A DNA stretch of 64,000 nucleotides, from positions 17,294-81,293 of the forward strand of contig CANLAQ010000004.1 of the NCBI GenBank assembly GCA_947488235.1, written 5' to 3'. This document shows positions 4,472 to 16,201 of the stretch, piece after piece (the stretch's first letter is position 1; every line of letters starts with the position of its first letter). The DNA comes from Flavobacteriales bacterium. Lineage in GTDB: Bacteria; Bacteroidota; Bacteroidia; Flavobacteriales_D; Crocinitomicaceae. Position numbers and translations under genes: made by a program. The notes beneath the pieces were generated by a model, which was not told the DNA's origin, did no database searches, and was given only the letters and a program-made list of their open reading frames with translations.

Positions 4472-4882
4472 TTAAGCTTCTAAAGATTCTATTATGGGTT
4501 GTATGGCTTGAAACAGGACTTCTTCATTCCAAGGCTTTGCAATAAAACTATCTAACATTTCTTCCTGCAATAATTCTTCTACAGAAATTGGATTCGCTTG
4601 TCCTGAAAGCATTATGCATTTAAGTTTTGGATGTTTCGACTTTATGGCACGGATTAATTGAGCTCCAGTCATTTCCGGCATTTGATAATCTACTATAATA
4701 AATATGATATCAATCTTTTCTTCTACAAGTGCATCTATGTTGAGAAAGGCTTCAGAAGGATCCGTGAAATATTCAATAAGGGTATGCTTTTGATTAACAA
4801 CTTTAGTCAGTTGAAAGGCAAGCATTTGTAGAATAAACGGGTCGTCATCGACACAAACAACAGCATATTTTATAGAATCCAT
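4472..4882 (-). CDS. Stand-alone response regulator receiver protein (no output domain)
   Basis: 136-aa ORF with acidic pocket VCVDDD, phospho-acceptor context IIVDYQMPEMTG and a conserved K (IAKPW). Confidence 0.85.
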   Translation of the reverse strand: MDSIKYAVVCVDDDPFILQMLAFQLTKVVNQKHTLIEYFTDPSEAFLNIDALVEEKIDIIFIIVDYQMPEMTGAQLIRAIKSKHPKLKCIMLSGQANPISVEELLQEEMLDSFIAKPWNEEVLFQAIQPIIESLEA

Positions 4883-4942: not shown

Positions 4943-6769
4943 CTATCGTGTAAAAGTCAATTGAAAAACAGTTTTTTCTTTATCAGAGCTAAGTGAAATG
5001 GAGGCATTATGTTCTTTAAGAACACTTTTTACAATGCTCAAGCCCAATCCAGAACCGTTCTTTTTTGCTTTAGTGGTGTAAAATTTATCAAAAATATGCT
5101 TCTGAGTCTCTTCTGGAATATGTGGGCCATTGTTCTCAAAATAAATGCAGATTGCACCTTGCCGCTCTTCACTATATATTTTCAAGACTCCTTTAGTTTC
5201 TGTTTCTTCGATAGACTCTATTGCATTCTTTAATAAATTAGACCACAATTGAAATAATTTAATTTCTAAGCCAATAATTTCTAAAGATGGATCCACATCA
5301 AAATAAACTTCCACATTTTTCCTTAAGGCGAAATTAAATATGTTGAGGACCGAAGCAATGTTATTATGTAAAACAACAACAGACTTTTCATCATTTCGAT
5401 GATCCTTACTGAATGCACTTAGATCACTAACTACTTTTGCTGCTCTTTCGCTTGCGCTAAGAATAGTGGTTAAAAAACTTTTAATCGTATGTAAATTAAA
5501 AATCAAGGAGAGAAACGCAATGGGATTACTTGAGCTAATAATCGATTGAATTAAATCAGTATCCGAAATGTTTATGTTTGACTTAACCAACATACTGGCG
5601 ATTTGATTTCGATCAGAAGATACAATGCCTGGAAAATAATCCAGTAAATATTTTTCGAATTCTTTAATTTCTCTTCTTTGTTGAAGACCGCCAACATACA
5701 ATACTCGATTTGTGGTCTCTGCTAATTCGCAAGCTTTTATGATTTGATCTTGACTGCATTCTGAAATTGTGCTCTTTAATAAATTTTCAAACGAATACTT
5801 TACACTTTCAGCGCCTATTTTAATGGCTCCAATTGGGGTATTTAAATCATGTGCGACACCTGAAGACAATTCACCAATGGTAACCAATTTTTCTTGATCA
5901 GATATGGACTTAGCTAAGTCTAAGTTTCGTTGTGTTTTTTCAATTACAATTTCTTCCAAATCTAAATTGATCATTTCAATTTCTTTTTTAGCGATGGATA
6001 ATTTTTCCTCTATTAATTTTCGAGAGCTGATATCCATTCCATAACCAATGACAAAATTTACCTTTCCATTCTCATCAAAAACAGGACCCATTTTCCGAAG
6101 AATTACTTTTCGATTTCCTTCAGCATCTTTAATTTCTTCCTCCCATTCAATTTCCTCTTTTGATTGCATAACCTTATCAAATAGTGCTCTTCTTTTTTCC
6201 GCGACGGTTGTTGGCAAGCCTTTAAATTCGCAATAATCAAAGTCATCTTTGCCAATAATGAACTTGCGGATTTTATCGTCTTTTATGCCTTGCGGATTAA
6301 CGAAAAGATATCGATGATCTGCACTAAAAACTGCAATATCAGATGGTATGCTATTTAATATATATTCAAAAAAAGCACTTTGACTTTCCAATTTTTTATT
6401 CAGTGCATTTAAATCGTCAATAGAATCTTTTTTTTCTGTAGGGTGCGCCTCTGGGTAGGCTAACAAAGTAAATCCAAAGTCAGTGACTTTGAGACTAAGT
6501 TTAAAGTTTTGATTTAAATAGCTGCACCCAAAAAACTTCAGCTCCTTATTATTTGAATCCAAACAGTTGGGAAGATCCTTTTTGATGTCAAAATCAAAAA
6601 CTAAAGAAATCGATTTTCCTATTAAGGAAATGGGTTGCTCCGCTAATACATCACTGACATGAATAATGGTGCCGTCTGATTTAAGTAAGGCACAATATGC
6701 ATGCGAAAATCTGAGAGATTCGAAGACTAAATCTAAGGATAAAGCGGAAATGTTATTTTGCATATTCAA
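4943..6769 (-). CDS. PAS-domain sensor histidine kinase
   Basis: 608-aa ORF with H-box SSGVAHDLNTPIG and an HATPase region with N-box and G-boxes (NLLKNAIES..ENNGPHIP..GSGLGLSIV). A PAS-like segment lies upstream. No obvious TM helices, so it is probably cytoplasmic. Confidence 0.85.
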   Translation of the reverse strand: MNMQNNISALSLDLVFESLRFSHAYCALLKSDGTIIHVSDVLAEQPISLIGKSISLVFDFDIKKDLPNCLDSNNKELKFFGCSYLNQNFKLSLKVTDFGFTLLAYPEAHPTEKKDSIDDLNALNKKLESQSAFFEYILNSIPSDIAVFSADHRYLFVNPQGIKDDKIRKFIIGKDDFDYCEFKGLPTTVAEKRRALFDKVMQSKEEIEWEEEIKDAEGNRKVILRKMGPVFDENGKVNFVIGYGMDISSRKLIEEKLSIAKKEIEMINLDLEEIVIEKTQRNLDLAKSISDQEKLVTIGELSSGVAHDLNTPIGAIKIGAESVKYSFENLLKSTISECSQDQIIKACELAETTNRVLYVGGLQQRREIKEFEKYLLDYFPGIVSSDRNQIASMLVKSNINISDTDLIQSIISSSNPIAFLSLIFNLHTIKSFLTTILSASERAAKVVSDLSAFSKDHRNDEKSVVVLHNNIASVLNIFNFALRKNVEVYFDVDPSLEIIGLEIKLFQLWSNLLKNAIESIEETETKGVLKIYSEERQGAICIYFENNGPHIPEETQKHIFDKFYTTKAKKNGSGLGLSIVKSVLKEHNASISLSSDKEKTVFQLTFTR

Positions 6770-12224: not shown

Positions 12225-12749
12225 ATGTTAGCTCCTTTCAACCTAAAAAAATGGATTTCAGACAACAGAGATTTATTAAAGCCACCTATTTCAAATAAAA
12301 ATTTATACATCGAAGCAGGTGACTTCATCGTAATGGTGGTAGGCGGACCGAATGCGCGAAAAGATTATCATTACAATGAAAGTGAAGAACTTTTTTATCA
12401 AATTGAAGGAGATATTACGGTAAGAATTCAGCATGAAGGCAAGCCTATGGACATCGAGGTGAAGGAAGGTGATATATTTTTATTGCCTGGAAATACACCC
12501 CACTCTCCTATCCGTGGAGCAAATACCGTTGGATTAGTTATTGAACGCGTAAGAATAGGAAGCGATTTAGAAGATGGTTTGTTTTGGTTTTGCGAGAACT
12601 GCAATAACGAATTGAAATCTTACCGATTCAAATTAAATAATATCGAAGTAGATTTCTTGTCTCGATTTAAAGAATTCTATGCTTCTTTAGAGATGAGGAC
12701 TTGTAATAAATGCGGTACAATAATGGAAACAGACCCTAAGTTCTCTTAG
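12225..12749 (+). CDS. 3-hydroxyanthranilate 3,4-dioxygenase (cupin)
   Basis: 174-aa ORF with the Fe ligand pattern DYHYNESEELFYQ..GNTPHSP and a C-terminal rubredoxin-like 4-Cys site (CENC...CNKC), as in bacterial HAO/NbaC. Confidence 0.85.
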   Translation: MLAPFNLKKWISDNRDLLKPPISNKNLYIEAGDFIVMVVGGPNARKDYHYNESEELFYQIEGDITVRIQHEGKPMDIEVKEGDIFLLPGNTPHSPIRGANTVGLVIERVRIGSDLEDGLFWFCENCNNELKSYRFKLNNIEVDFLSRFKEFYASLEMRTCNKCGTIMETDPKFS

Positions 12750-13183
12750 TTATTCTGTGGTTCAAAGGTCATTAAATACACTCCTTGAGAAGTGTATTGC
12801 TCTAATACCAATGTTTTATTTTTCAACTCTTTAATGGTATAAGTTACCGGAATATCTAATCCTACTTGCAATAATGACAAGGTAGTTTTCTCTGTCTCTA
12901 GCGTCCAATCACCATGAATGTAGCTTGTAGTGATTTGACCCAATGCAGTTTGAGAGTCAGCCATAGAAAAGGTTCCGTCTTTATCAATAGAAAGCGTTTT
13001 TGAAGGAACTTTAGAAATTACTTCATTCCCATCTTTTAAGATACTTACCAACTCCCAATTGTTACACAATCGAGCAGTTTTAGTCAAAATTGAAAATTTT
13101 GGACCGTTAGGATATTTATCACAAGAATTTAATACAACCATTGTTGTAACAATAAGCGCCAAAGAAAAGATGAATTTTTTCAT
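12746..13183 (-). CDS. Lipocalin-like lipoprotein, paralog 1
   Basis: 145-aa ORF with lipobox LNSC. The pattern KFSILTK..R..NNWELVS..DG...DKDGTF...G.W is shared with the neighbouring ORF. Confidence 0.55.
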   Translation of the reverse strand: MKKFIFSLALIVTTMVVLNSCDKYPNGPKFSILTKTARLCNNWELVSILKDGNEVISKVPSKTLSIDKDGTFSMADSQTALGQITTSYIHGDWTLETEKTTLSLLQVGLDIPVTYTIKELKNKTLVLEQYTSQGVYLMTFEPQNN

Positions 13184-13225: not shown

Positions 13226-13258
13226 AAAAAAAAGCCATCCGAAGATGGCTTTTAAAAA
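13226..13258 (-). terminator. Rho-independent terminator after the lipocalin-like paralog 2 gene
   Basis: A 7-bp stem agccatc/gatggct (13233-13239 / 13244-13250) with loop cgaa is flanked by A and T runs. On the minus strand the hairpin is followed by TTTTTTTTT. Confidence 0.7.
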
Positions 13259-13267
13259 ATTTCTAAC

Positions 13268-13708
13268 TTATTTAGTTGCCCAAACAGTAATCATAGTTGA
13301 ATTGTTTGATGAATCGAACTGTGATAATTTCATATCGTCCTTAGCCAATTGAATTATAGTCCATTCCCCAGTTACAGTTGTGCCTGTCTCAATAGTAAGT
13401 AATTTCGTTTTGTCATCACTAAATGACCATGTTCCTGTAACAGTATCTGTATAAGTTTGACCTAACAAAGTATATGCAGTTGTATTGGAATAAGTACCAT
13501 CTTTTAGAAATTTAATAGTAACAACCAAGCCAGTCATGTTTAAAGATGTACCATCTTGAGTCATGGATACCAAGTTCCACTCATTGATCACGCGTGATTT
13601 TTTAGTTAACAAAGTGAATTTTGATCCTTCGTCATACTTACTACACGATGTCATCATTGTACTAGTAGCCAAAGCTGCTACAAATCCAATTAAAAATAAT
13701 TTTTTCAT
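13268..13708 (-). CDS. Lipocalin-like lipoprotein, paralog 2
   Basis: 146-aa ORF with lipobox MTSC. It is collinear with the 12746..13183 product (KFTLLTKKSRVINEWNLVS..DG..LKDGTY..GTW). Confidence 0.55.
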   Translation of the reverse strand: MKKLFLIGFVAALATSTMMTSCSKYDEGSKFTLLTKKSRVINEWNLVSMTQDGTSLNMTGLVVTIKFLKDGTYSNTTAYTLLGQTYTDTVTGTWSFSDDKTKLLTIETGTTVTGEWTIIQLAKDDMKLSQFDSSNNSTMITVWATK

Positions 13709-14196: not shown

Positions 14197-14958
14197 ATGC
14201 AGCTAAATTTCAGAACATTAGGGAGTGGTAAACCACTTATAATTTTACATGGTCTATTTGGATCAGCAGACAATTGGCAGAGTCAAGCCAAAATATTCGC
14301 TACTTACTTTCAAGTTTATCTCATTGATTTACGGAATCACGGACATTCACCTTGGAGTGAGGAGCACAATTATACCTTACTTGCAGAAGATGTACAGAAG
14401 CTACTTGAGGAACAGAAAGTAGAAAACGCAATTGTCCTGGGACATTCTATGGGAGGAAAAGTGGCCATGACGCTTGCTCAAAATACGATTGGTTTGGTAG
14501 AGAAATTAATCGTTGTAGATATGGGCATGAAACAATATCCCTTGCATCATCAACATATATTGGGAGGATTGAATGCTGTTGATCTAAATTCAATTTCATC
14601 TAGGTCTGAAGTAGAATTGATTCTAAGAGAATACATAAACTCTGAGGGAGTTTTACAATTTTTGCTCAAAAATTTATATTGGAAGCAAAAAGGATCTCTG
14701 GCCTGGCGGATGAATTTTAAAGCATTGGAAATTCACATGGATGAAATTCTTGAGGTCATTCCTGAAAAAGAAGTGATGATACAGACCTTATTTATTCGAG
14801 GAGGTTTATCTAATTATATTTTAGATGATGATATTCCTGATCTGGAAAATAATTTTCCTGACAGTCAATTTGAAACCATCGAAACGGCAGGACATTGGGT
14901 ACATGCCGAGGCGCCAGATGAATTTATTTCGATCGTTTTAGGGTTTTGTTTGCGATAG
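14197..14958 (+). CDS. Alpha/beta hydrolase (YbfF-like esterase)
   Basis: 253-aa ORF with HGLFGS oxyanion region, nucleophile elbow GHSMGG and a C-terminal GHWVH catalytic His. Confidence 0.8.
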   Translation: MQLNFRTLGSGKPLIILHGLFGSADNWQSQAKIFATYFQVYLIDLRNHGHSPWSEEHNYTLLAEDVQKLLEEQKVENAIVLGHSMGGKVAMTLAQNTIGLVEKLIVVDMGMKQYPLHHQHILGGLNAVDLNSISSRSEVELILREYINSEGVLQFLLKNLYWKQKGSLAWRMNFKALEIHMDEILEVIPEKEVMIQTLFIRGGLSNYILDDDIPDLENNFPDSQFETIETAGHWVHAEAPDEFISIVLGFCLR

Positions 14959-15137
14959 ATATGGGCAATTGCCCATATCCACGCAAACAGGCAATTGCCC
15001 ATATCCACGCAAACAGGTAATTGCCCATATCCACGCAAACGAGTTGTTGATACGGGCAATTGCCCGTATCAACGAATAACCGAATACCCGAATCAACAAA
15101 TAACCGAATACCCGAATCAACGATTACCCGAATCAAC
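14958..15137. repeat. Composite REP-like repeat array of two perfect palindromes, two tandem repeat families and a shared 11-nt motif
   Basis: Read directly from the sequence. There is a 22-bp perfect palindrome gatatgggcaattgcccatatc at 14958-14979. A 26-bp tandem unit gcaattgcccatatccacgcaaacag occurs 3 times (14965-14990, 14991-15016, and 15017-15042 with 2 mismatches). A 28-bp perfect palindrome gttgatacgggcaattgcccgtatcaac sits at 15046-15073. A 24-bp unit caacgaataaccgaatacccgaat occurs about 2.7 times (15070-15093, 15094-15117, and a partial copy at 15118-15133). The motif CCC[AG][TA]ATC[CA]AC occurs 7 times in direct orientation. Confidence 0.9.
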
Positions 15138-15657
15138 GATCATTCTCATTGAATGAATCATTAATCCATTTCAATGGATTATTAATAATATATCGCCGAA
15201 TAGCATTTAAGGCCTTTTCGTTTCGAATAATACGATCATGATAAAGCGATTGCCATTCAAATTCAATATTATTTTGGTTGGCATATCGTTTTAACGATGA
15301 TTTGAATGCTCGTATCACTGCCCCTAAATTTTGTGATTGCACACCAAATTTATTTGGAGTCCAATCTTTTTTATCTGGTCTATTGAAAAATAAAATTCCA
15401 TGAATATGATTGGGCATTACTACAAATTGATCTATTTCGACAAAGGGATAATGCGCAGGAATTTCTTTCCAAAATTCATTAGCAATTTTACCAATTTCAG
15501 AAAAATCCGAGATTTCACCAAAATAATTTATACGGTTTTTGGTGCAAATGGTAACGAAATAATATCCATGAGATCCATAATCATATCCTTGAAGTCGAGT
15601 AGATTCGGAACGATATTTGTTTTGAAATTTTGTGATTGTTATTTTTTTCGTCAGTAA
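15133..15657 (-). CDS. IS200/IS605-type Y1 transposase homolog (REP-associated tyrosine transposase-like); stop-to-stop frame with no canonical start
   Basis: The ORF track reports only 15133..15417 (MPNHIHGILFF...). My translation shows the same frame stays open up to 15657 and reads ..KFQNKYRSESTRLQGYDYGSHGYYFVTICTKNRINYFGEI..EFWKEIPAHYPFVEIDQFVVMPNHIHGIL... This contains the N-terminal beta-strands, the HUH motif (HIH), and a C-terminal WQSLYHDRIIR..YIINNPLKW segment carrying the putative catalytic Tyr. There is no ATG, GTG or TTG upstream of the HUH motif. Confidence 0.75.
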   Translation of the reverse strand, partial: LLTKKITITKFQNKYRSESTRLQGYDYGSHGYYFVTICTKNRINYFGEISDFSEIGKIANEFWKEIPAHYPFVEIDQFVVMPNHIHGILFFNRPDKKDWTPNKFGVQSQNLGAVIRAFKSSLKRYANQNNIEFEWQSLYHDRIIRNEKALNAIRRYIINNPLKWINDSFNENDR

Positions 15658-15697
15658 TTAGAAGTTGCTTCTTTGAACGAAATAAATCAACTTATAT

Positions 15698-16201
15698 TCA
15701 TCGTTTTTTATAAATCGGAACGGTAGAACAAGGTTCTCCATACATCAAGGATTTAACAACAGGTCTAATGTGAGCAACAAGGGCAGTACTTGCGAAATCA
15801 GGATTAGGAATGTCTGAACATCCTTTTACAATGACTCTTTGATCTTTAAACTTGGATAGGTCTAAATTTTGAATCTCCCTTTCGATGAGTCTTTTCTCTA
15901 AATCAATTTTTGAACCTACTAAAAAATAAACGGAAAACTTAGAAAGTTCACTTCCAATAAGCATGTATGCCCATGTTGGAATAATGGCATCAGAGGAGCA
16001 GAATATATAAACCGCTGTATTTTCATAAGCCGACCAATCATGAGTCGAAATCCAAGCGCGAAAATCTTTTTCACGCAGCACCATCCCTTGCCATAATTGT
16101 TCGGTTAAATCAATTCCTAATATGGGAATAGTTGGCTTAAATTCTGCCATGTCCAATTGAATTAGACCGCTATCTTTTATTTTATTGACAATTTCAGCCA
16201 T
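15698..16201 (-). CDS. DUF2480 family protein
   Basis: 167-aa ORF. DFRAWISTHDWSAY..IIPTWAYML..VKGCSDIP..MYGEPCSTVPIYKK matches my recollection of Bacteroidota DUF2480 proteins. Confidence 0.55.
   Translation of the reverse strand: MAEIVNKIKDSGLIQLDMAEFKPTIPILGIDLTEQLWQGMVLREKDFRAWISTHDWSAYENTAVYIFCSSDAIIPTWAYMLIGSELSKFSVYFLVGSKIDLEKRLIEREIQNLDLSKFKDQRVIVKGCSDIPNPDFASTALVAHIRPVVKSLMYGEPCSTVPIYKKR

Follow-up and report, generated by a model that had tools for sequence, protein, structure and literature searches.

The closest described system is TnpAREP subclass 2.4, which has been reported from Bacteroidetes and Cyanobacteria with 28-nt double-foot REPs, REPs inside tnpA, and short repeats (Quentin et al. 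2018, PMC6006769), and which is the same as group 4 in the RAYT grouping of Bertels, Gallie & Rainey 2017 (PMC5581495). The double-foot REPs of this subclass bear GT[AG]G at the 5' end and C[TC]AC at the 3' end, and in-frame REP insertions in tnpAREP are predominant in the subclass without being universal (PMC6006769). The E. coli TnpAREP (PDB 4ER8; Ton-Hoang 2012; Messing 2012; Corneloup 2021, PMC8266576) acts on a hairpin that carries a guide tetranucleotide at its 5' side. In the TnpAREP work on E. coli, S. maltophilia, and Marinomonas, a GTAG foot specifies a CT cleavage dinucleotide and a GTGG foot specifies CC (PMC8266576). The REPs of E. coli, imperfect palindromes that contain a bulge, are dispersed in hundreds of copies and form BIMEs of alternating orientation on both sides of the gene. 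IS200/IS605 elements (IS608, ISDra2) have hairpins at both ends, occur in several identical copies, often carry tnpB, and encode a TnpA with DH[VI]H and Y[IV]ENQ motifs. In REPIN-RAYT systems (RAYT groups 2 and 3; Bertels & Rainey), the RAYT is single-copy, vertically inherited, and housekeeping-like, and the REPINs are inverted REP doublets dispersed in tens to hundreds. What RAYTs do in vivo, and what makes hosts retain them, are still open questions; published work draws on in vitro assays and comparative counts of dispersed REPs.

Here we describe a RAYT locus in a 64-kb stretch of Crocinitomicaceae DNA (the window, meaning the whole 64,000 nucleotides analysed). The locus is, in our judgement, probably a REPtron, in which a chromosomal RAYT of TnpAREP subclass 2.4 (RAYT group 4), single-copy and maintained by vertical descent, stands beside its cognate REP hairpins. 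Since this kind of RAYT has already been described in Bacteroidota (PMC6006769), the locus would be a new example of a known system, and not a type uncharacterised in that phylum, as a sequence-only reading of the same DNA had proposed as one possibility. The surroundings are chromosomal housekeeping genes, and the genes at the locus are as follows:

14197..14958, plus strand: alpha/beta hydrolase gene (Pfam Abhydrolase_1, E = 4e-26), convergent with the RAYT gene
15133..15654, minus strand: RAYT/TnpAREP gene, 173 aa, with a CTG start at 15652-15654 and a TGA stop at 15133-15135 (TCA on the plus strand)
15655..15697, minus strand: 43-nt spacer from the DUF2480 stop to the RAYT start, presumed promoter/leader
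15698..16201, minus strand: DUF2480 gene, kept as the upstream neighbour of the RAYT gene in four of four lineages

The RAYT gene and its product

The assignment of the product to the Y1/RAYT proteins, first made from the sequence, was borne out by profile and structure searches. The protein matches NCBIfam NF047646 (REP_Tyr_transpos) with E = 4.2e-17 and 62.4 bits, under the curated cut-off of 80. The match to Pfam PF01797 (Y1_Tnp) covers profile positions 6-121 of 121 with E = 0.002, and its 18.7 bits lie under the gathering cut-off of 23; a precomputed PF01797 match exists in only a minority of the homologs listed. The PF01797 check suggested earlier thus gives a sub-threshold score for a protein that has the fold and the HUH and Tyr motifs of the superfamily. 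A direct phmmer search of PDB sequences retrieved no match, and a search of the PDB with a family profile retrieved a single one, the E. coli TnpAREP 4ER8, to which protein identity is about 21%. An AlphaFold model (pLDDT 80.5, pTM 0.74) was searched against the PDB using Foldseek, and the best 30 matches were all Y1 transposases with probability 1.00, IS608 and ISDra2 TnpA among them; the best of these was again 4ER8 (TM 0.58/0.61, rmsd 3.2 Å). In a family alignment of 22 sequences, the HUH motif H84-I-H86 and the catalytic tyrosine Y156 (residues counted in the 174-codon frame) do not vary, and they align with the HMH and YIYINP motifs of 4ER8.

The motifs PNHIHG, EWQS, and YIINNP correspond to the subclass 2.4 row of Table 1 of PMC6006769 (NH[IFV]H, WQ, YIxNNP). 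Subclass 2.6 was considered and rejected, as its Y motif, YIH[QN]NP, does not fit YIINNP. The protein also resembles subclass 2.4 in having a length within the class range, a low gene copy number (one RAYT copy in the 64-kb window), and a host in one of the subclass's two main phyla. It differs in that the window clade has no REP in the coding sequence, and none was found in the window gene, whereas most homologs have one after 'YFG': REP-coded segments of the VETGNCPSL type follow 'YFGEI' in 17 of the 21 aligned homologs and are absent from the window protein.

The frame of 174 residues reported earlier is indeed open, and only its start required correction, to the CTG at 15652-15654. This likely provides a weak start for a protein of 173 aa, judging by the sequence of the frame and by the TTG that relatives carry at the same codon. 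It could be argued that the gene is a pseudogene that has lost its start codon, since no ATG, GTG, or TTG occurs before residue 81 of the 174-codon frame and public gene calls for this clade consist of fragments of 94-126 aa (including P0028-P0031 and a set of 95-aa calls). These calls are short because the start codon is CTG, however, and all relatives examined keep the frame open, with CTG and TTG alternating at one codon. Additionally, dN/dS is 0.09-0.17 for the gene as a whole; in the 71 codons that precede the first ATG it is 0.04-0.20, equal to the C-terminal half. The pattern of substitution indicates a gene that is under purifying selection, intact, and not decaying, and we regard a pseudogene as very improbable.

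Palindromes and half-REP units

The repeat block at 14958-15137 consists of a 22-bp and a 28-bp perfect palindrome with 26-nt and 24-nt tandem units, and every palindrome, unit, and block edge described in the sequence-only reading was recovered where it had been placed. Its elements are listed below.

14948..14988: extended imperfect palindrome, P1 with outer stem, GTTTGCG-ATA-GATATGGGCAATTGCCCATATC-CA-CGCAAAC (from sequence and folding)
14958-14979: P1, 22-bp perfect palindrome GATATGGGCAATTGCCCATATC, with 5' foot GTGG on the RAYT sense strand and AATT centre
14964..15041, minus strand: three 26-nt tandem units (3.0 copies at 14964-15040, 98% matches)
15046-15073: P2, 28-bp perfect palindrome GTTGATACGGGCAATTGCCCGTATCAAC, a double-foot REP
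15063..15137, minus strand: array of half-REP units with 8/16/24-nt periodicity (from repeat and motif scans)

P2 is made up of 12-bp stems, including the feet GTTG/CAAC, and a 4-nt AATT centre, and it is conserved in relatives (L001, L010, L014, L015, L017, and L023-L032). As far as sequence can tell, this architecture is the double-foot REP design published for subclass 2.4, matching Table S1 of PMC6006769 in its 28-nt length, 12-bp stems, and 4-nt centre. P1 has feet GTGG at its 5' end, which falls inside the published GT[AG]G, and CTAT at its 3' end. Its dyad symmetry reaches 10 nt into the hydrolase gene, where GTTTGCG (14948-14954) pairs with CGCAAAC (14982-14988). Each 26-nt unit, read on the RAYT sense strand, is GTTTGCG-GTGG-ATATGGGCAATTGCC-T, that is, outer arm, foot, 5' arm, and centre. 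The 24-nt unit is present in 3.0 copies at 15063-15133 (89% matches, 8-nt sub-period), and on the RAYT sense strand the half-REP array holds four copies of GTTGAT[AT]CGGG (foot and 5' arm).

The array exactly fills the gap between the two convergent stop codons (hydrolase TAG at 14956-14958, RAYT at 15133-15135), and both stop codons lie inside REP feet. On the hydrolase side, the first REP draws its outer arm and its degenerate foot from the last 11 nt of the gene, GTTTGCGATAG, and the ATAG foot contains the stop codon TAG; on the RAYT side, the stop codon is supplied by the gene-proximal GTTGAT[AT]CGGG copy (GT-TGA-T).

The 11-nt motif CCCRWATCMAC occurs on the plus strand at 14972, 14998, 15024, 15063, 15087, 15111, and 15127, confirming the seven same-orientation copies first noticed, and an eighth copy lies on the minus strand at 15046-15056. 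The count of eight compares with 0.23 expected in the 64-kb window, and none of 100 shuffles reached it. On the RAYT sense strand the motif reads GT[GT]GAT[AT][CT]GGG, so that the seven direct copies are the guide tetranucleotide (GTGG in three, within GT[AG]G, and GTTG in four, a one-base variant) followed by the 5' stem arm. The guide that the sequence-only reading had reported as lacking was thus missed, not absent.

As single-stranded DNA, the repeat block folds far more stably than shuffled sequences on both strands (z = -6.8 and -7.2), and the arm differences between REP variants are symmetric, GTTGATACGGG, GTAGAGACGTG, GATTCGGG, and GATATGGG each lying in a perfect palindrome. These results and the architecture of P2 agree with the initial view of the palindromes as REP-type hairpins. 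As first described, too, the repeats are confined to one side of the gene, the 3' side: folding of the 5' flank of the RAYT gene is not above chance (z = -1.1), and no hairpin was found in the 43-nt spacer. An Rfam search of the array gave only sub-threshold, miRNA-like hairpin matches, so the array belongs to no known RNA family, and a scan for terminators detected no stem with a T-run after it, so intrinsic terminators are not supported.

The regular spacing of the seven direct repeats had also suggested an iteron array, and we considered a replication or partition site, or another protein-binding array, unrelated to HUH chemistry. No replication or partition gene was found near the array, which stands among chromosomal housekeeping genes; the unit is a REP foot with a 5' arm; and copy number is not conserved, the number of units varying between strains. 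Iterons are accordingly the explanation to which we give the least credence.

The core GGGCAATTGCCC (at most one mismatch) has no copy beyond this locus in the 64 kb, as had been observed before, nor in any other part of the fetched loci. The window holds no other palindromes resembling P1 or P2, only five unrelated short ones. The exact 22-nt pattern GATWYGGGCAATTGCCCRWATC was found at the syntenic locus only in three related GTDB MAGs scanned whole (completeness unknown), and in two syntenic contigs only in the JGI metagenome set. In these MAGs and contigs, the search of relatives proposed earlier showed the palindrome nowhere else, and the tens to hundreds of copies typical of REP families were not seen. 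This REP type appears, from the sequences searched, not to have spread through the genome.

The array shares with subclass 2.4 (RAYT group 4) its REPs abutting the gene and the associated short repeats; the modest genomic abundance of flanking 16-mers in that group also agrees. It differs in its feet, which are GTTG/CAAC or GTGG/CTAT and not GT[AG]G/C[TC]AC, in its REPs being 3' only with no further genomic palindrome copy detected, and in its strain-variable tandem array of half-REPs. Unlike the E. coli REPs, the palindromes here are perfect and confined to one locus, with half-units all in the same orientation; a hairpin substrate (predicted here), the aligned motifs, and the best structural match are what the two systems have in common. 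The likeness to REPIN-RAYT systems extends to the RAYT and its mode of inheritance, but no dispersed population was detected here.

The locus in relatives

The order DUF2480-RAYT-array-hydrolase was found in the window clade and in a sister lineage (L006), and the DUF2480-RAYT adjacency was also found in L016/L017 and in L018, the contigs of both ending before the hydrolase gene. The RAYT gene is therefore at the same chromosomal site in four lineages. In the sister lineage L006, the REP feet are canonical (GTAG...CTAC). In L019/L020, which represent a more distant DUF2480 lineage, the genes are ordered differently and UbiA lies downstream, so there is no clean 'empty site' there; the comparison of orthologous junctions advised earlier shows the RAYT gene and array in L006 as well, and yields no such site. 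Elsewhere in the family, the REP-type palindromes (AATT centre) of L021 and L022 are confined, over 20 kb, to the RAYT gene itself or the sequence immediately 3' of it, and family members in unrelated genomic surroundings repeatedly pair a RAYT with a 3' REP.

These comparisons bear on two further possibilities, a mobile IS200/IS605 copy of the ordinary sort and the decaying end of such a copy, the latter having been put forward in the sequence-only reading. The shared Y1/HUH fold, the HUH/Tyr chemistry, and the logic of hairpin plus guide would agree with such an origin, as would the presence of IS608 and ISDra2 TnpA among the structural matches, a hairpin adjoining the gene, and the apparent absence of the palindrome from the rest of the genome. 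Nevertheless, there is a single copy in the window, no tnpB, and no hairpin on the 5' side; the motifs are NHIH and YIINNP and not those of the insertion sequences; and a gene with dN/dS of about 0.1, syntenic in four lineages, is not a decaying end. An IS200/IS605 origin is largely refuted, and we put its chances as very slight.

The synonymous divergence of the RAYT cassette is three- to four-fold lower than that of its neighbours. The 15655-15697 spacer is conserved with the distant L006 lineage, and the last six codons of the hydrolase gene are nucleotide-identical to those of L006, despite saturated dS across the whole hydrolase gene. One reading is that diverged Crocinitomicaceae lineages have exchanged a cassette (leader, gene, array, and the final ~20 nt of the hydrolase gene), always into the DUF2480/hydrolase junction, as a self-contained, locus-restricted unit without a genomic REP population, whose enzyme continuously remodels its own array. 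We consider this unlikely, while giving it some weight. If it were true, the array would naturally report on RAYT activity in vivo, and RAYT function would be independent of spreading REPs.

Array variation and a possible mechanism

The 27 syntenic loci carry 15 distinct array sequences, and complete arrays in the window clade range from 107 to 266 nt. Loci with an identical DUF2480 protein have at least six array alleles, and strains of a single species have between 1 and 3 copies of the 26-nt unit. The array is VNTR-like, gaining and losing units between strains.

Under the preferred interpretation as a REPtron, the enzyme would bind a hairpin extruded on single-stranded DNA, read the foot as a guide to choose the cleavage dinucleotide, and perform cleavage and strand transfer, by analogy with the TnpAREP of E. 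coli, S. maltophilia, and Marinomonas (PMC8266576). As GTAG selects CT and GTGG selects CC, GTTG would select CA. Half-REP units may be made and removed by local cleavage and rejoining plus hairpin-assisted replication slippage between repeated 5' arms, where one 3' arm could pair with any of several 5' arms. We compared unit junctions with the guide rule. The allele of L025/L028 is that of L032 minus 23 nt bounded by CA dinucleotides, which fits the rule, and the 26-nt units break after GCC, a loose fit. The 16-nt unit junctions have no CA dinucleotide, so the prediction does not explain the 16-nt units, and the guide rule was set aside as an account of unit junctions in general.

Ordinary slippage in a tandem array would yield the same polymorphism as enzyme-driven unit change. 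The array could thus be a plain minisatellite (VNTR) kept by replication slippage alone, with a host-side role between the two convergent genes, for instance in stabilising mRNA 3' ends or as a barrier formed by hairpins, next to a RAYT that is a historical neighbour no longer acting. Unit number does vary between strains like that of any 16-26-nt tandem array, the junctions of the 16-nt units depart from the predicted cleavage dinucleotide, the array occupies precisely the space from one convergent stop codon to the other, and REPs downstream of genes have been reported as RNA elements (PMC3733652). Such a passive role agrees poorly with a RAYT that is under purifying selection with intact catalytic residues, with the family-wide recurrence of RAYT and 3' REP in unrelated contexts, with the lack of T-run terminators, and with the retention in seven of seven units of the foot and 5' arm, the part that the enzyme would read. 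We find this explanation distinctly unlikely.

The freshwater Crocinitomicaceae locus offers a compact natural case in which the enzyme is conserved, the hairpins are apparently confined to one array (110-270 bp), and co-occurring strains differ in that array. A lake metagenome time series is the source of L001-L005 and L023-L032. If the enzyme drives the array changes, following the alleles through such series would record RAYT activity directly.

Some matches of the collection scan were discarded as chance, namely L012 and L013, which are isolated palindromes in unrelated sequence, and L007 and L011, which have no similarity to the window. The use of GC skew to assign the lagging-strand template was abandoned, the signal being too weak and too local. 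Assemblies often break at the palindromes of this locus. In one relative (L015), the counterpart of the extended P1 is a perfect 42-nt palindrome.

RAYT protein and its class

The locus is a REPtron (a RAYT gene with its cognate REP hairpins) of a published subclass; new in detail are its GTTG foot, REPs that are one-sided and locus-restricted, a half-REP array that varies among strains, and a cassette with low synonymous divergence. Its parts, in window coordinates, are:

14197-14958, + strand: alpha/beta hydrolase gene
14958-14979: P1, 22-bp perfect palindrome with core GGGCAATTGCCC
14964-15040: three 26-nt tandem units (98% matches)
15046-15073: P2, 28-bp perfect palindrome, core GGGCAATTGCCC in common with P1
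15063-15133: three 24-nt tandem units (89% matches; 8-nt sub-period)
15133-15654, - strand: RAYT gene
15698-16201, - strand: DUF2480 gene

The sequence-only reading had called the RAYT frame a Y1 transposase homolog. The stop-to-stop frame (15136-15657, - strand) does match Pfam Y1_Tnp (PF01797), at 18.7 bits and so below the curated cut-off of 23, and it matches NCBIfam REP_Tyr_transpos at 62.4 bits (E = 4e-17), below the cut-off of 80. More than 4000 homologs were retrieved, and all those with a source name are from Bacteroidota. The HUH residues H84 and H86 and the tyrosine Y156 are invariant in a 22-sequence alignment, the profile of which has a single PDB match, E. coli TnpAREP (4ER8), spanning the HUH and Tyr motifs. 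The AlphaFold model (pLDDT 80.5) retrieved only Y1 transposases among the top 30 Foldseek matches, with the best TM-score for 4ER8 (0.58/0.61, rmsd 3.2 Å). Homologs, invariant residues, profile match and structural model together place the protein firmly in the Y1/HUH fold.

In its motifs (NHIH, WQ and YIINNP) the protein agrees with TnpAY1 subclass 2.4 as tabulated by Quentin et al. 2018 (PMC6006769), a subclass equal to group 4 in the RAYT classification of Bertels et al. 2017 (PMC5581495). The earlier RAYT call is correct. The suggestion of a type not characterised in Bacteroidota is not supported, since subclass 2.4 was already described as abundant in Cyanobacteria and Bacteroidetes, with low copy number, with "long" or "double foot" REPs, with REPs that also occur in-frame within the tnpAREP gene, and with short repeats (PMC6006769). 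Most homologs carry the same palindromes translated within the ORF as VETGNCPSL, VETDNYPSL or VETHNCASL; this insert, typical of most homologs, is absent from the window clade.

No ATG, GTG or TTG precedes residue 81 of the frame in the window, and for this reason public gene calls in the window clade are only 94-126-aa fragments (P0028-P0031; 95-aa calls in L023-L032, a population of related loci). The start codon at 15652-15654 is CTG in the window and in relatives L001, L008, L010 and L024, and TTG in L006 and L014. The locus had also been read as possibly decaying, which is not supported: the frame is open in all relatives examined and the whole-gene dN/dS is 0.09-0.17. The 71 codons before the first ATG have a dN/dS of 0.04-0.20, equal to that of the C-terminal half. 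From the open frame, the CTG/TTG alternation and this low N-terminal dN/dS, we conclude that a full-length 173-aa protein is probably made from a weak CTG start.

Repeat block and REP design

The palindromes, the tandem units and seven + strand 11-mers of the block (14958-15137) had been described correctly. The + strand carries seven copies of the 11-mer CCCRWATCMAC and the - strand one, a total of 8 where 0.23 would be expected across the window. Outside the block, the 64-kb window has no further copy of GGGCAATTGCCC, as also reported before, and no similar palindrome. Folded as single-stranded DNA, the block has z-scores of -6.8 and -7.2 for its two strands. The dyad symmetry of P1 extends 10 nt into the hydrolase gene, where GTTTGCG (14948-14954) pairs with CGCAAAC (14982-14988).

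A guide of the GTAG type had been thought missing, a claim that is not supported. RAYT lies on the - strand, and on its sense strand the 11-mer becomes GT[GT]GAT[AT][CT]GGG, in which a foot tetranucleotide, GTGG in three copies and GTTG in four, precedes the 5' stem arm. The GTGG foot lies within the GT[AG]G published for subclass 2.4, whereas GTTG is one base off (PMC6006769). P2, GTTGATACGGGC-AATT-GCCCGTATCAAC, has the same design as Table S1 entries of that subclass such as GTAGAGACGCAC-GGCC-GTGCGTCTCTAC (PMC6006769), both being 28 nt long with 12-bp stems including feet and a 4-nt palindromic centre. At the same place, the sister lineage L006 carries a canonical GTAGAGACGTGCAATTGCACGTCTCTAC. 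Among relatives and family members the arms differ (stems include GATTCGGG, GATATGGG, GAGCCACAT and GTAGAGACGGAT), yet every variant stays perfectly palindromic around an AATT centre, so that a change in one arm has its mirror in the other.

Homolog proteins P0007, P0036, P0059 and P0011 contain in-frame tandem arrays of REP-derived units, equivalent to the half-REP iteration of the window but translated. One such array reads VETRNCG.. seven times in an 8-codon (24-nt) unit and ends with a full VETRNCASL palindrome. These proteins keep a conserved C-terminal tail, ETENLLKE, after the REP-coded linkers.

Synteny, array variation and dispersed REPs

The gene order DeoC, aldehyde dehydrogenase (two genes), DUF2480, RAYT, array and convergent hydrolase recurs in JGI metagenome contigs L001-L005, L014 and L015 (~91% nucleotide identity), in GTDB MAGs L008 (Flavobacteriales, 95.5%), L009 (95.6%) and L010 (Crocinitomicaceae, 90.7%), in population L023-L032 (DUF2480 protein 99% identical to that of the window), and in two more distant lineages, L016/L017 and L006/L018; L016, L017 and L018 stop short of the hydrolase and give the DUF2480-RAYT adjacency only. 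We rejected an insertion sequence, given this shared site, the single RAYT copy in the window, and a RAYT 5' flank in which no hairpin was found (folding z = -1.1).

The 27 syntenic loci hold 15 distinct array sequences, four of them cut by contig ends; in the window clade, complete arrays are 107-266 nt long. The array is VNTR-like: at least six alleles occur among loci with identical DUF2480 protein, which differ in how many 26-nt units (1 to 3) and 16/24-nt half-REP units they carry. The RAYT stop codon is always supplied by a GT-TGA-T foot, and the hydrolase stop TAG lies within an ATAG foot (GTAG in L006). In L015 (~4760-4870, reverse strand) the array is fused to RAYT at ...KWKNG*, removing the C-terminal tail (the last ~10 codons), with the stop again supplied by a GT-TGA-T foot; in this relative P1 forms a perfect 42-nt palindrome including the hydrolase 3' end.

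With one 3' arm opposite several 5' arms, alternative hairpins are possible, and such pairing would be an obvious route to slippage. Under a guide rule deduced from Corneloup et al. 2021 (PMC8266576), GTAG selects CT and GTGG selects CC, so GTTG would select CA. Removing 23 nt bounded by CA dinucleotides from the L032 allele gives the L025/L028 allele, a difference that agrees with this rule and with microhomology alike; the 16-nt units are at odds with the rule. Enzyme-driven remodelling of the array is something we infer and do not present as a result.

The exact pattern GATWYGGGCAATTGCCCRWATC, which takes in every palindrome variant that the window clade shows at this locus, retrieved six stretches in GTDB species representatives (three syntenic loci in related MAGs and three unrelated single palindromes) and three contigs of the JGI metagenome set, two of them syntenic and one unrelated. 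No dispersed REP population was detected by this pattern in these two sets, the MAGs being of unknown completeness, and the 12-nt core is confined to the array in each fetched relative. Two other family members, one in Pedobacter helvus (L021) and one in a Bacteroidia MAG (L022), likewise have REP-type palindromes, within 20 kb, only inside or immediately 3' of RAYT. REP counts are limited by contig breaks at palindromes (L009, L016, L017, L030 and L031 end in the array) and by an N-gap in the L006 array (6518-6616). In L009, L017 and L030 the break falls in or directly after a perfect palindrome. Because short-read assemblies repeatedly break or gap inside the array, such loci are likely under-represented in MAGs.

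Synonymous divergence and other window features

Between the window clade and the L006 lineage, flanking genes have a dS of at least 2 or saturated (amino-acid identity 64-80%), and RAYT has a dS of 0.5-0.7 (85-88%) with a dN/dS similar to theirs. At synonymous sites, the syntenic neighbours have diverged three- to four-fold more than the cassette (window, L006, L001 and L016 compared; figure from the window clade and L006 lineage). Similarity to L006 by blastn runs from ~45 nt upstream of the RAYT start to its stop, and the last six hydrolase codons are identical to those of L006 at the nucleotide level. The low dS suggests either exchange between lineages into the same junction or synonymous-site constraint on the cassette DNA.

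Elsewhere in the window, most 8-kb bins from 8 to 48 kb have a positive + strand GC skew (+0.05 to +0.09), which falls to -0.12 to -0.13 from 48 kb on; the switch at ~48000 could be replication-related or a mere change in gene orientation. Two adjacent - strand ORFs (12746-13183 and 13268-13708; 145 and 146 aa) both start with MKK, have hydrophobic N-termini and look paralogous by eye, and between them lies a hairpin of terminator-like appearance, AAAAGCCATCCGAAGATGGCTTTT (13230-13253).
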